64,000 nucleotides of DNA from Tagaea sp. Lineage in GTDB: Bacteria; Pseudomonadota; Alphaproteobacteria; CACIAM-22H2. The stretch lies in contig CBDIIB010000002.1 of the NCBI GenBank assembly GCA_965279525.1, forward strand, positions 192,001 through 256,000, read 5' to 3'. The notes beneath the pieces are model-generated. The model was not told the DNA's origin, ran no database searches, and worked only from the letters and a program-made list of their open reading frames with translations. Within the stretch, counting starts at the first letter, position 1. The number at the start of each line of letters is the position of its first letter. The position numbers and the translations under genes are program-made. Positions 1 through 62,321 of this stretch are shown here, piece by piece.

Positions 1-1021
1 GGCTCGCCGGCCGGCGCTGCGGATAGCCGGTCCCGTCGAGCTTCTCGTGGTGGGCGCGCGCCCAGTCGGCGATCCGCGACATGCCCGGGATGCGCTCGAG
101 GAGCGTGCCGGTGTGGTAGGCGTGGCTGCGCACGCTGCCGAATTCGGCGGCCGTCAGGCCGGCCGGCTTTTCGATGATTTCGCTGGGCACGGCCAGCTTG
201 CCGATGTCGTGCAGCTGGGCCGCGACTTCGATCTGCATGGCTTCGGCCGTGTCGAACCCGGTCATGGTCGCGAGGATCGAGGCGACGGAAGCGACACCCC
301 ACGAGTGGGTCGCGGTGAACGGCGAGCGGGCGTCGACGATAACCGAGTAGAGGCGTCCGAAATCCTGGAGGCCGTCGATGTCCGCGATCGCCCCCGATTC
401 GCCGGCGAGGCGCGCACGGATGCGCGCGTCGAGGTCGATGCTGGAGGCGTCGAGCCAGAAGGAGTCGGCTTCGCTGGCGCGAAGGAACGCGTCGGCAAGG
501 GACGGGTCGAGATGGGCGTGCGCGTGGGCGGCCGCGTCGGCGCGCCTTGCGGCGACCTGGGAGAGGATGAAGGCGGCCGGATCGACGCTGTCGTCGATGA
601 AGTTCGCGAGATTGAGGACCTGGGAAAGCAGTGCGTCGGGGGCGCGCAGCGTGCCGTAGTCGCGCAGGCGCGCCAGCGGCTCGCGATAGCAGGCGACGAG
701 CGGTGCTAGCCGGCGGGTCAGCGGCGAGATCTCGAGGAATCGCGCCCCCGTCTCGGACCGGTTCTTCCAGTTTTCGCGACTGAGCGCGCCGACGCTGTGC
801 AGGAGCCCGGCCTGCATCACGCGGGCGATCTCGCCGTCGGCAAGGCCGAGTTCCTTGGCAAGATTGGCGGCGATGATCGCCACCCGTTTCTGGTGGGCGC
901 CGAGGACGGGGTCGAGCAAGTCGATCGCCGCCCCGAGCGCGAAGATCAGTTCGATCCGCGGGACTTCGAGTGTCCGGGCCTGCGGAACGAGAAACCGGTG
1001 AGCGGGGGACATCACGTTCAT
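1..1021 (-). CDS. Tandem HD / HD-GYP domain cyclic dinucleotide phosphodiesterase (3' end outside window)
   Basis: Not in the ORF track; manual minus-strand translation from ATG 1021: MNVMSPAHRF...AHQKRVA...LLHSVG...THSWGVA...QLHDIGKLAVPSEIIEKPAGL...HHEKLDGTGYP. Confidence 0.9.
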   Translation of the reverse strand, partial: MNVMSPAHRFLVPQARTLEVPRIELIFALGAAIDLLDPVLGAHQKRVAIIAANLAKELGLADGEIARVMQAGLLHSVGALSRENWKNRSETGARFLEISPLTRRLAPLVACYREPLARLRDYGTLRAPDALLSQVLNLANFIDDSVDPAAFILSQVAARRADAAAHAHAHLDPSLADAFLRASEADSFWLDASSIDLDARIRARLAGESGAIADIDGLQDFGRLYSVIVDARSPFTATHSWGVASVASILATMTGFDTAEAMQIEVAAQLHDIGKLAVPSEIIEKPAGLTAAEFGSVRSHAYHTGTLLERIPGMSRIADWARAHHEKLDGTGYPQRRPAS

Positions 1022-11528: not shown

Positions 11529-11659
11529 CGGCAACCCCCGAGCAACGCGGGTCATGCAGGACGGCCGATCCCAACCGGGTCGCCGAGGCTGGATAGCGTT
11601 GCGAAACGGGCGGCTGGCGTCGGAAGCCGGAGGAGAGACGGAGTTCGAGTACGGGCACG

Positions 11660-12133
11660 ATGGACAAGATTCCGATGACGCGCGAGGGCTACGAGCGCCT
11701 CGAAGCCGAGCTCAAGAACCTCAAGTCGGTCGAGCGGCCGGCCGTGATCCGGGCGATCGCGGAAGCCCGCGACCATGGCGACCTTTCCGAGAACGCCGAG
11801 TATCACGCCGCGCGTGAGCGCCAGTCCTTCATCGAGGGCCGCATCGGCGAGCTCGAGGACAAGGTGAGCCGCGGCGAGATCATCGACGTGGCCTCGCTGA
11901 CCGGCAAGCAGATCAAGTTCGGCGCCAAGGTGACGCTGGCCGACGAGGACACCGACGAGGAGTCGACGTACCAGATCGTCGGCGCCGACGAGGCCGACGT
12001 CGAGAAGGGCCGCATCTCGATCACCTCGCCTCTGTCGCGCGCCCTCATCAACAAGCAGGCGGGCGACAAGGTCGAAGTGACCACGCCGCGCGGCCACAAG
12101 GCCTACGAGATCATCAAGGTCCGCTTCAAGTAG
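11660..12133 (+). CDS. greA: Transcription elongation factor GreA
   Basis: [16 protein letters not shown] and [12 protein letters not shown] motifs. Confidence 0.97.
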
Positions 12134-12152
12134 CGCGCCTGCGAACTCGCGC

Positions 12153-12181
12153 TTGATTTCGCGCGCTGACGCGCGTATACG
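12153..12181 (+). promoter_or_regulatory. Putative sigma70 promoter of the chr operon
   Basis: TTGATT-N17-TATACG about 115 bp upstream of the ATG at 12296. Confidence 0.45.
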
Positions 12182-12295
12182 ATTTTCCGCGCGGGGCCAC
12201 CGGCAGTCGCCCCGCCATTTTCCCAAGACGACCCGCTCGTCCAAGCACTGCCTTTCGGGGGACCCGCACGGGTCCTTGCCGGGAGGTGACGGACG

Positions 12296-13231
12296 ATGAC
12301 GCTTGCCAAATCGACGAACCGCTATTCGATCAAGCCGCTGGGCGCAAAGCCGGAGACCTATCCGGGCTACAGCGAAAAGCTGATCGTCAGCCATTTCGAG
12401 AACAACTATGCGGGTGCCGTGAAGCGGCTCAACGCGATTTCGGCGCGGCTCGAAGCACTCGATCCTGGTGCTGCCGTGTTCGAGTGGAACGGCCTCAAGC
12501 GCGAAGAGGTCGTCGCGTACAACTCGATGCTTCTCCACGAGGTCTATTTCGAGGCGATCGGCGCGCCCGTGCCGCCGCCCGTCGATCTCGCCGCCGCGAT
12601 CGACCGGGATTTCGGTTCGTTCGCGAACTGGCAGCTACGCTTCGCGGCCTGCGCCAAGGCGCTTGCCGGCGGCTCGGGCTGGGTGGTTCTCGTGCGCGAG
12701 AACCGCGACGGCCGCCTTGCCATCCAGTGGAGTGCGGACCACACGATGGGCTTTGCCGGCGCGACGCCGATCCTCGCACTCGACATGTACGAGCACGCCT
12801 ATCACATGGACTACGGTGCCAAGGCGGGCGCTTATGTCGACGCGTATTTCGGCGCGATCGACTGGACGCAGGCTGGCCGCCGCTGGCGCAATGCCGAACC
12901 GGCGAAGAACCCGCATGCGGTGACGCTCGACGACCTCGCGCGGATCGACGGCGTGTTCGTTGATGCGCGGCGCGGCCCCACCTACGCGGCATCGACCGAG
13001 ATCCTGCCCGGCGCGCTCCGCGTCGATCCGGCGGCACCCGACGGGGCCAAGGCGGGCCTGCCGCGCGACCGCGAAATAATCGTCTATTGCGTGCTGGGAT
13101 TCAGCTTCAGCCAGGACACGGCCGCGGCGCTACGCGCGCAAGGCTACCGGGCGCGCTATCTCGACACCGGCATCGCCGGATGGCGCGCGATGGGTAACCC
13201 GCTTGGCTCCAAGAAGGGAGAATCCGCATGA
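12296..13231 (+). CDS. ChrC-like Fe/Mn superoxide dismutase fused to a ChrE-like rhodanese domain
   Basis: SOD ligands IVSHFENNY, LLHEVYF, LDMYEHAY; C-terminal rhodanese DARR...IIVYCVLG...GIAGW; first gene of the chr operon. Confidence 0.85.
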   Translation: MTLAKSTNRYSIKPLGAKPETYPGYSEKLIVSHFENNYAGAVKRLNAISARLEALDPGAAVFEWNGLKREEVVAYNSMLLHEVYFEAIGAPVPPPVDLAAAIDRDFGSFANWQLRFAACAKALAGGSGWVVLVRENRDGRLAIQWSADHTMGFAGATPILALDMYEHAYHMDYGAKAGAYVDAYFGAIDWTQAGRRWRNAEPAKNPHAVTLDDLARIDGVFVDARRGPTYAASTEILPGALRVDPAAPDGAKAGLPRDREIIVYCVLGFSFSQDTAAALRAQGYRARYLDTGIAGWRAMGNPLGSKKGESA

Positions 13232-13683
13232 GGTGGATCACCCGCGAACGCCCGAAGATCGACCGCGTGGCCTGCCCCTGGCTGGTCGCACGTTTCATCG
13301 ACAAGGCGCCCGAGTTCCTGTTCGTGGCGTCGGGCAAGGTCCTGTCGGAGGCCAAGCGGCTCGACGCGATCCCCTACGACGTGCCGGGCGTGGAACTCAC
13401 CCACGACGGCCCGCTGTGCAGCTTCGACGCGTTCCTGAAGAAGTACGGCCTGACGGACCCCGCACTGGCGCACCTCGCGATCATCGTGCGCGGGGCCGAT
13501 ACCGGACGCCCGGAGCTGGCGCCGGAATCGGCCGGGCTGCTGGCGGCCTCGCTCGGCCTGTCGGCGATCCATGCCGCCGACGACCATGCGATGCTTGCGC
13601 AGGGCTTCGTGCTGTACGACGCTCTCCATGCGTGGGCGCGCAAGGCACAAGGCGAAACCCACAACTGGCCGCCCAAGGGATGA
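13228..13683 (+). CDS. Chromate resistance protein, ChrB C-terminal domain only (ChrF-like)
   Basis: MRWITRERPKIDRVACPWLVARFID...THDGPLCSFD...IVRGADT; ATGA overlaps with both neighbours. Confidence 0.88.
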   Translation: MRWITRERPKIDRVACPWLVARFIDKAPEFLFVASGKVLSEAKRLDAIPYDVPGVELTHDGPLCSFDAFLKKYGLTDPALAHLAIIVRGADTGRPELAPESAGLLAASLGLSAIHAADDHAMLAQGFVLYDALHAWARKAQGETHNWPPKG

Positions 13684-15008
13684 ACGAGATGCCCGACGCT
13701 TCCGCACCCGCCTCGTCCGGCCCCGCCGCATCGGCGCGCCCGTCGTTCGGCGAGGCGCTCGCCTACTGGTTCCGGCTCGGCTGCCTGTCCTTCGGCGGCC
13801 CGGCTGGCCAGATCGCGATGATGCAGCACGATCTCGTCGACGGGAAACGCTGGATCGCGCAGCGCGCGTTCCTGCGCGGCCTGTCCTTCGCCACGCTGCT
13901 GCCGGGGCCGGAGGCCACGCAGCTTGCCGTCTATATCGGCTGGCGGCTGCATGGCACGCTCGGCGGCGTCGTCGCGGGATCGCTGTTCGTCATTCCGGGC
14001 GTGCTGTGCATGCTTGCCCTTTCCTACATCGCGGCGGCGCACGGCGAGACCGGCTTCGTGGGCGCGATCTTCGACGGGCTCAAGCCCGTCGTCATCGCGA
14101 TCGTCATCCACGCGGTCTGGCGGATCGGCCGGAAATCGCTCCACACGTGGCAGGCGGTGGCTCTTGCCGCAGCGGCTTTCGTCGCGATCCACTTCGTCTC
14201 GATCGATTTTCCGTGGGTCGTCGCGGCGGCGGCCGTGATCGGCTGGCTGTCCGCGCGCGGGGCGGCACCCTCGCCGTTTGCCGCCGGCGGGCACGGCGCC
14301 GATGCCGACGAAGACGAGCCGTCGGCCGTCCTTCCCGCCAACCCGACGCGGCGCTTCGTGAAGCTCGGGGCGATTTTCGCGGTGCTGTGGGCCGTCCCGG
14401 TCGGCCTCGTGCTGCTGGCGATGGGCACGCGCCCGTTCTTCGACATCGCCGAGCTGTTCACCAAGGCGGCGTTCGTCACGTTCGGCGGCGCCTATGCCGT
14501 GCTGCCCTACGTCGCCGATGCGGCCGTGAATTTCTATGGCTGGCTCACGCCGGCCGACATGCTCAACGGCCTTGCCCTTGCCGAGACGACGCCGGGACCG
14601 CTGATCCTCGTGCTCCAGTTCGTCGGCTTCTTTGCCGGCTGGAACGCCGGCCTCGCGGACCCGCTCGCGGCGGCCGTGGCGGGTGCGCTGCTGGCAAGCT
14701 ACGTCACGTTCCTGCCGAGCTTCCTGTTCATCCTTGCCGGTGCCCCGTATATCGAGGGCCTGCACGAGAACAAGGGTGCGTCCGCTGCCCTTGGCGCCAT
14801 CACGGCGGCGGTCGTCGGCGTGGTGCTGAACCTCGCGGTCTTTCTCGGTCAGGCGGTGTTCGTGCCGGCACCGGGCGTCGTCGACTTCGTGGCATTGGGT
14901 GTCGCGGCGATCGCCTTCGTGGCGCTCGTGCGCTTTGGTGCGGCGATCCACTGGCTGGTGCTCGCCGGGGCCGCATTCGGTCTCGCGCGCTACGCGACGG
15001 GGCTGTGA
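13680..15008 (+). CDS. chrA: Chromate efflux transporter (long, two-domain CHR family)
   Basis: SFGGPAGQIA, LLPGPEA, TFGGAYAVL and ETTPGPLI repeated CHR motifs. Confidence 0.93.
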   Translation: MNEMPDASAPASSGPAASARPSFGEALAYWFRLGCLSFGGPAGQIAMMQHDLVDGKRWIAQRAFLRGLSFATLLPGPEATQLAVYIGWRLHGTLGGVVAGSLFVIPGVLCMLALSYIAAAHGETGFVGAIFDGLKPVVIAIVIHAVWRIGRKSLHTWQAVALAAAAFVAIHFVSIDFPWVVAAAAVIGWLSARGAAPSPFAAGGHGADADEDEPSAVLPANPTRRFVKLGAIFAVLWAVPVGLVLLAMGTRPFFDIAELFTKAAFVTFGGAYAVLPYVADAAVNFYGWLTPADMLNGLALAETTPGPLILVLQFVGFFAGWNAGLADPLAAAVAGALLASYVTFLPSFLFILAGAPYIEGLHENKGASAALGAITAAVVGVVLNLAVFLGQAVFVPAPGVVDFVALGVAAIAFVALVRFGAAIHWLVLAGAAFGLARYATGL

Positions 15009-15337
15009 CGAAACGCTTCCAGCGCCGGATCGAGGATTTCGCCTGCGGCAACTGCGGGCGGACGGTGACCGGCGACGGCTATACGAACCACTGCCCGCAT
15101 TGCCTGTGGTCGCGCCATGTCGACGTCAATCCGGGCGACCGCGCAGCCGAGTGTGGCGGCCTGATGCGGCCGCTGCGCGTGGAAACGCAAGGCGGTGCCT
15201 GGACGCTGGTGCACGAATGCGCGTCCTGCCGCACGGTTCGGCGCTGCAAGACCGCGACGGCGGACGAACGCGACGCGCTGCTCGCGCTTGCGCGCGTCGC
15301 GGCCGCGGAGGCGGCTAGCGGAAAAAGACGAACGTGA
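15005..15337 (+). CDS. RNHCP-domain zinc-ribbon protein
   Basis: GTG start overlaps the chrA stop; FACGNCG...YTNHCPHCLWSRHVD...GDRAAECGGLM...HECASC. Confidence 0.82.
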   Translation: MTKRFQRRIEDFACGNCGRTVTGDGYTNHCPHCLWSRHVDVNPGDRAAECGGLMRPLRVETQGGAWTLVHECASCRTVRRCKTATADERDALLALARVAAAEAASGKRRT

Positions 15338-62248: not shown

Positions 62249-62321
62249 GGGCCCGTAGTTCAGCGGTCAGAACGCGCCGCTCATAACGGTGTTGTCGCAG
62301 GTTCGAATCCTGCCGGGCCCA
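62249..62321 (+). tRNA. tRNA with CAT anticodon, most likely tRNA-Ile2 (lysidine-modified)
   Basis: Cloverleaf GGGCCCG/CGGGCCC acceptor, CTCATAA anticodon loop, GTTCGAATC T-arm; G1-C72 paired so not initiator; near rpoD; 3' CCA incomplete (ACCG). Confidence 0.92.

Follow-up and report, generated by a model that had tools for sequence, protein, structure and literature searches.

A chrB-b RNA in the leader of a Tagaea chromate-resistance operon shares nucleotides with a hairpin over the Shine-Dalgarno sequence

How chromate-resistance (chr) genes are controlled where the regulator ChrB is present only as its C-terminal domain is the question raised by a locus of Tagaea sp. The window, the whole stretch of DNA analyzed here (64,000 nucleotides, positions 192,001 to 256,000 of contig CBDIIB010000002.1, assembly GCA_965279525.1), carries a chr operon whose leader lies between two genes, greA (11660-12133) and a ChrC-like gene that starts at 12296. 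A preliminary description of this leader, made from the sequence, had proposed a conserved, structured cis-acting RNA at the 5' end of the operon, akin to the chrB motifs reported in other proteobacteria, and both proposals held. An Rfam scan matched chrB-b RNA (RF03086) at 12192-12251 (+) with 50.7 bits against a gathering score of 36.5 and an E value of 1.6e-7 (64 kb, both strands, 4227 Rfam families); the alignment is full-length, covering model positions 1-49 of 49. The leader is a genuine, well-formed member of the published orphan chrB-b family, a candidate riboswitch, and, as the element is already catalogued in Rfam, the window copy adds no new RNA class. It shares with RF03086 the P1 hairpin with its GCAG loop, the P2 hairpin, the CCAAG..CUGC tail and a location in an alphaproteobacterial 5' untranslated region (UTR) of chromate-resistance genes. 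The differences are not essential; the linker between P1 and P2 is 9 nt longer than in the consensus. The motif ends 44 nt upstream of the ChrC-like/ChrB_C/ChrA operon, in its presumed 5' UTR. At the gathering score, the sole other Rfam match within the window was a tRNA gene (62249-62321, RF00005, 70 bits), and a permissive scan of 12100-12350 with E values up to 10 returned chrB-b alone and no match to chrB-a.

The passage that introduces chrB-a and chrB-b (Weinberg 2017, PMC5737381) describes them as related motifs of alpha-Proteobacteria with the same gene associations, in the presumed 5' UTRs of chromate-resistance genes. It suspects them of sensing chromate and reports in vitro assays in which no sign of binding to chromate or related chemicals was seen. 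In the literature searched, we found no later paper naming a ligand for the chrB motifs. The elements of the leader are listed below by position, strand and nature.

12153-12181, +, promoter-like site read from the sequence: -35 TTGATT (12153-58), 17-nt spacer, -10 TATACG (12176-81)
12192-12197 with 12209-12214, +, P1 hairpin, CGGGGC with GCCCCG (Rfam alignment); its 11-nt loop (12198-12208) contains GGCAGU
12202-12207, +, 5' strand of the pseudoknot, GGCAGU, within the P1 loop (covariation count)
12227-12231 with 12237-12241, +, P2 hairpin, GACGA with UCGUC (Rfam alignment and covariation count)
12241-12252, +, 3' tail: CCAAG (12241-45), then the 3' strand of the pseudoknot, ACUGCC (12247-52) (alignment)
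12250-12287, +, hairpin hiding the Shine-Dalgarno sequence, with a lower stem of 12250-58 (GCCUUUCGG) and 12279-87 (CCGGGAGGU)
12281-12286, +, Shine-Dalgarno sequence GGGAGG, 9 nt upstream of the ATG
12291-12298, +, GGACGA (12291-96), able to pair with UCGUCC (12237-42, which is the 3' strand of P2 and one more C) and overlapping the ATG at 12296-98 (minimum-energy fold)

Folding energy alone would not identify this leader as special: the 129-nt leader folds at -54.2 kcal/mol (z -1.36), no better than 20 of 200 shuffles. That it is more than chance follows from homology and covariation. For the latter we used 51 instances of the motif. The order of the window comprises 50 genomes (family and order are here the same set), and 34 of them contributed; one further match (L029, 30 bits, below the cut-off, with no downstream open reading frame (ORF)) was left out of all alignments and counts. 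A plain MAFFT alignment, which misplaced P1 in roughly half of its rows, was rejected and replaced by alignment of the instances to a covariance model built with P1 and P2 only. Pseudoknot pairs were added by hand for pair counting and, since they are absent from the covariance model, the alignment is not biased towards them. Across P1, P2 and the pseudoknot, 97.7% of 839 cells were paired vs 86.0% in shuffles (0/500 shuffles as high), and nine of the 17 pairs had changed on both sides. When the partner was slid by 1-3 columns as a control, just 35-45% remained paired. The instances are kin, and the shuffle figures therefore overstate significance; the slid controls retain this relatedness. 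By element, pairing reached 99.3% of cells in P1, with two of six pairs changed on both sides (GC/CG at pair 2, CG/AU/GC/UA at pair 6), 99.2% in P2 (three of five pairs) and 94.9% in the pseudoknot (four of six pairs), where the exchanges comprised AU/UA/UG/GU at pair 6, AU to GC in two rows and GC to AU in one. The GCAG of one instance (L131) fell in an insert and was counted as a gap. The CCAAG of the tail is invariant in all 51 instances, and the GCAG of the P1 loop and the CUGC of the tail vary little or not at all. P1, P2 and a pseudoknot from the P1 loop to the tail form a conserved, covarying RNA fold.

This fold redraws part of the first picture of the leader. The inner GACGA/TCGTC hairpin named there is P2 of the chrB-b motif. 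The nested helices around it did not survive: P1, the strongest helix, had been missed, and once P1 is in place GGCAGT and ACTGCC make a loop-to-tail pseudoknot and not an outer helix. The strings themselves lie where they had been placed (GGCAGT, ACTGCC, GACGA at 12227-31, TCGTC at 12237-41, CCGGCA and GGGAGG), except that TGCCGG is at 12277-82 and not at 12278-83. Independently, CaCoFold is reported to add a new, covariation-supported pseudoknot to the structure published for "chrB RNA" (Rivas 2020, PMC7657543). In the window leader the pseudoknot joins the P1 loop with the 3' tail; the cited passage is silent on chrB-a vs chrB-b and on the strands.

Where does the RNA begin? The promoter that had been proposed at 12153-12181 is present as TTGATT-17 nt-TATACG and belongs to a pattern conserved among the instances: TTG-N16-18-TA, with the -10 element ending 6-10 nt before the motif, was found in 40/51 instances vs 4/1816 control 60-mers from the same loci. 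A generic promoter scan gave no promoters under a rule that demands T at position 6 of the -10 element and so excludes TATACG. The conserved position suggests that the motif probably starts within a few nt of the mRNA 5' end, and in the window transcription is predicted most likely to start at about 12187-12190, a few nt before P1. In RNA libraries (22 runs), at most 0.24 of the words were found as RNA in any run. Four runs gave contigs, and these came only from relatives at 90-95% identity. Two contigs, X8 (12213-12581) and X2 (12241-12531), link part of the leader to the coding region; such contigs prove neither transcription nor its start. With the motif directly after a promoter, one might suppose that it acts as DNA, as the operator of a transcription factor, and not as RNA. 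We give this virtually no weight: the compensatory changes preserve pairing and not sequence, and the register of the pseudoknot would make no sense for a DNA palindrome. U-G pairs occupy P1 pair 1 in 18 rows, and G-U wobbles fit RNA of the + strand only, as they become A-C mismatches on the other strand.

A generic terminator scan found no terminator-like site in 11600-12700, which points to control at the level of translation, and the sequence between the fold and the start codon offers a means. Each of 50 distinct leaders, folded from its CUGC tail up to the start codon, gave a hairpin (mean z -2.9; z below -2 in 43/50). The Shine-Dalgarno core is fully paired in 33/50 of these, and in 47/50 three or more of its nucleotides are in pairs. 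The hairpin of the window has -26.4 kcal/mol (z -2.80) and pairs 5/5 nt of the core, its lower stem joining GGGAGG with CCUUUC and its upper stem 12259-65 with 12270-76 around a loop at 12266-69. This upper stem is the feasible form of the GGACCCG/CGGGTCC helix in the preliminary description, which as written leaves a 2-nt loop; it forms the tip of the hairpin. In all 50 leaders the 5' strand of the hairpin starts inside the CUGC tail, with 1, 2 or 3 of its 4 nt paired in 10, 15 and 25 leaders, respectively. The expression platform thus shares nucleotides with the sensor fold, namely the last 1-3 nt of the tail.

The 5' strands of the hairpin vary widely (GCCUUU, GCCUUC, GCACAA, GCGCAA, GCUCCA and others) yet match their own start regions. 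Ten nucleotides from the tail GC form a duplex with their own start region that averages -12.4 kcal/mol, compared with -7.8 kcal/mol for unrelated leaders, and the own duplex beats at least 90% of cross pairs in 36/45 leaders. The same hairpin of tail and anti-Shine-Dalgarno strand occurs in five of seven instances outside the order (L105, L085, L088, L097 and L051, the last below the gathering score), and two Variovorax leaders are built differently from this design.

A different exchange of strands had been put forward at first, in which CCGGCA (12200-05) pairs either with the tail or with UGCCGG (12277-82), exposing or hiding the ribosome-binding site. The 6-bp complementarity (duplex -12.9 kcal/mol) exists in the window and in L018, L020, L113 and L115, with 5 bp in L012, that is, in 5/49 distinct leaders (6 counting the 5-bp form), all of one genus and operon type. 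Counting any pairing of at least 5 contiguous pairs between the P1-loop strand and the Shine-Dalgarno flank raises this to 8/49 distinct leaders, in a count where the parsing of the P1 loop is approximate for L003, L027, L028, L116 and L125. It is missing in the other 41, including ChrC-type leaders of the same genus (L009, L010, L013 and L024) that keep both the motif and the hairpin. UGCCGG is already explained by the hairpin, in whose 3' strand it lies, and the strand shared between the two structures across the 50 leaders is the 3' tail. We give this exchange very little credence and see the CCGGCA/UGCCGG pairing as most likely incidental to the 3' strand of the hairpin.

We hypothesize that in the chrB-b leader the sensor fold competes with the hairpin that hides the Shine-Dalgarno sequence and thereby controls translation, the signal probably being a small molecule or ion; taken as a whole, we consider this reading likely. 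The first ~60 nt would fold into a compact, sensor-like domain of P1, P2 and the pseudoknot beside the invariant CCAAG. Without signal, the extended hairpin would block the translation start of the chrC-like/chrB_C/chrA/RNHCP operon. A signal linked to chromate stress, with a small molecule or ion as the candidate, would fix the fold of P2 and pseudoknot, withdraw the shared strands from the hairpin and turn translation on. This ON direction is suggested by the overlap of strands and the logic of the genes. When P1 and P2 were forced and the pseudoknot strands withheld, the unpaired probability of the start codon rose from 0.37 to 0.72 on average. The forced sensor fold costs about +11.7 kcal/mol before any pseudoknot bonus, and the loop-tail duplexes average about -9 kcal/mol, so the two folds appear roughly balanced, as a switch requires.

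Several points weigh against this competition model. The overlap between pseudoknot and hairpin is just 1-3 nt, and with the sensor fold forced the Shine-Dalgarno core mostly stays paired in the nearest-neighbour model (more than 0.5 unpaired in 2/49 leaders), which leaves the direction and the size of the effect conjectural. The whole-leader folding energy is the unremarkable one given above, and, as the genomes behind the instances are related, the counts make the instances look more independent than they are. Three loci (L023, L027 and L028) carry the motif directly after the greA stop and have no promoter, and the contigs from the RNA libraries, being from relatives at 90-95% identity, cannot reveal a start, which is a prediction only. 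Finally, the passage on the chrB motifs reports no evidence of in vitro binding to chromate or related chemicals (PMC5737381), which makes a small-molecule ligand a candidate only.

The stability of the modelled hairpin in both states would also suit a leader that does not switch at all, whose 5' structure would be constitutive and serve the stability or processing of the mRNA and whose hairpin would simply damp translation or be temperature-sensitive, and it would suit such a leader that no ligand is known. A leader of this kind would leave unexplained the strong conservation of CCAAG and GCAG/CUGC, the covarying pseudoknot, the overlap of tail and hairpin in 50/50 leaders and the occurrence of the motif before many unrelated gene families tied to one stress; we regard it as highly improbable.

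The competition model may involve a second contest at the start codon. When the window leader is folded without constraints, P2 is unformed, and UCGUCC pairs instead with GGACGA at the start codon. We took the reverse complement of the 6 nt holding the P2 3' strand and compared it with the start region (-10 to +14): 18/50 leaders had a match of at least 5 nt, against a background of 5.9% in random coding windows. Ten of these 18 are ChrC-type leaders of one genus, and the remainder amounts to 8/38. Pairing of the P2 3' strand with the start codon across leaders is therefore suggestive, not firm. As a separate observation, unrelated downstream proteins often start with Met-Asp (AUG GAC), e.g. 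in L005, L006, L022, L030, L112, L124 and L130; GGAC can pair with the GUCC that is invariant in the P2 3' strand, and an RNA-level constraint may shape the first codons. The genome of the window has a second copy of the motif (L002 1501-1546 (-), corresponding to G000:C2:264205-264250), 8.2 kb past the window's end, with 45 bits and upstream of an OCD/mu-crystallin gene. In this copy P2 is changed to GGC/GCC, and the start region AUGGGCA complements the changed P2 3' strand.

What the leader would control in the window is an operon of four genes.

12296-13231, +, ChrC-like gene, 311 aa, with an Fe/Mn superoxide dismutase C-terminal domain and a rhodanese domain (Sod_Fe_C 2.1e-24, Rhodanese 6.9e-08)
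13228-13683, +, ChrB C-terminal-domain protein, 151 aa, without ChrB_N (ChrB_C 3e-46)
13689-15008, +, chrA chromate transporter, ATG start at 13689 (Chromate_transp 9.1e-70)
15005-15337, +, RNHCP-domain protein, its GTG start overlapping the chrA stop (GTGA) (RNHCP 1.8e-27)

The RNHCP-domain gene is translationally coupled to chrA. Elsewhere the motif lies upstream of rhodanese-ChrB_C fusions, ChrB_C with DUF1127, ChrA, MFS_1, MatE and OCD/mu-crystallin genes, and it also precedes AcrB-type genes, there after short ORFs. Such a spread over many gene types tied to one stress is as expected for a regulon. Two details of these genes stand on their own. ChrB_C is fused to DUF1127 in L016 (weakly in L005). 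In a subgroup of leaders (L128, L016, L121, L015, L131 and the second copy of L025) the first start after the hairpin is TTG, and the TTG of L128 opens a 71-codon ORF before ChrB_C whose sequence recalls DUF1127 by eye.

Does the RNA take over from a protein? In TnOtChr of Ochrobactrum tritici, the ChrB protein is described, in the passage at hand, as the regulator of the chr operon (PMC3817168). It likewise controls chrA/chrC-type genes, but it is a protein, acts on transcription and has an N-terminal domain not found in the window's genome. The operon had been noted for having a ChrB C-terminal-domain protein only, and this stands: we found no ChrB_N match in the window's genome and a single ChrB_C match there. 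As a positive control, the ChrB_N model matched in 16/401 genomes of the class. Within the order, ChrB_N occurs in 9/50 genomes and ChrB_C in 34/50. A match to the RNA lies within 3 kb upstream of 30/46 ChrB_C genes without ChrB_N vs 0/7 full-length ChrB genes, and none of the nine contigs with ChrB_N carries an RNA match. This pattern fits an RNA that regulates where the DNA-binding half of ChrB is missing.

The same pattern, as if the RNA replaced the DNA-binding N-domain, would also suit a different division of labor, in which a protein, and not a small molecule, binds the fold: a ChrB_C-domain protein encoded downstream, or another trans-acting factor, would respond to chromate and make the ribosome-binding site accessible or block it. 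Of the 51 RNA matches, 28 have ChrB_C within 3 kb downstream, and the in vitro assays without chromate binding reported in the passage on the chrB motifs (PMC5737381) would be in keeping with such a factor. The other 23 RNA matches, however, have no ChrB_C within 3 kb downstream, and 8/34 RNA-bearing genomes have no ChrB_C match at all, three of them rated 94%, 96% and 98% complete (G006, G008 and G012). We know of no evidence that ChrB_C binds RNA. Binding by a protein is in our view rather unlikely. ChrB_C as an obligatory partner of the RNA is, in particular, weakened by the eight genomes that lack it.

How far does the motif reach? Within the order, 33 of the 34 genomes with a match have one above the cut-off. 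In a sample of 61 genomes the motif was found in 28, including 27/36 of the window's family, and in 0/24 sampled genomes of other families of the class. The latter figure, from a small sample, says little about range, because six loci of other taxa pass the gathering score: L059 1029-1084, L047 1027-1082, L105 1193-1247, L085 1684-1736, L088 1212-1264 and L097 1207-1257. These loci outside the order were reached through ChrC homologues and scored with our own model, then with Rfam. The closest ChrC-like proteins in public records belong to Tagaea sp. or Rhodospirillales. Two Variovorax isolates are among the six loci, in which the motif lies upstream of chrA followed by a chrC-like gene; the text of PMC5737381 at hand mentions alpha-Proteobacteria only. 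In the Variovorax record L059, a manganese riboswitch (785-955 (-), RF00080, 52.2 bits) adjoins the chrB-b/chrA unit in divergent orientation. Copies may also accumulate within a genome. Genome G022 has six, three of which lie within 5 kb of one another on contig C234 (L030, L130 and L112), before ChrA, before an SGL-like gene followed by ChrB_C, and before AcrB. In L025 (G031:C44) two copies are 1.2 kb apart, and the copy at 1501-1585 has a P2 with a 30-nt insertion repeating the CCCAAGAC stretch and still scores 39.6 bits.

Small pseudoknotted riboswitches, such as the fluoride riboswitch, switch on toxic-ion exporters. By analogy, chrB-b would be a compact pseudoknot sensor in a resistance or efflux leader that competes with an inhibitory hairpin; the two differ in that 12100-12350 gave no sequence or model match to the fluoride riboswitch, chrB-b being the only family found there. 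In a fuller version of the competition model, chrB-b would switch translation on through two strands, the tail of the pseudoknot and the 3' strand of P2, each with a competing partner, one at the Shine-Dalgarno sequence and one at the start codon. It would replace the DNA-binding half of ChrB in the order and govern more than chromate efflux, its regulon also taking in OCD/mu-crystallin, MatE, MFS, RND and rhodanese fusions. We offer this version tentatively, as a possibility that we would not yet favor. A wider regulon, together with the reported lack of in vitro binding, would point to a ligand other than free chromate and, if the version is true, perhaps to a chromium-thiol or a sulfur-linked product of chromate stress.

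The chrB motifs are orphan riboswitch candidates, and the gathered set gives them a concrete design open to testing, in which a sensor lies close to the promoter, a pseudoknot covaries and the ribosome-binding site is covered by a hairpin that shares nucleotides with the sensor. The list of genes behind the motif, and the way in which RNA and full-length ChrB complement each other from locus to locus, could guide the choice of ligands and reporters.

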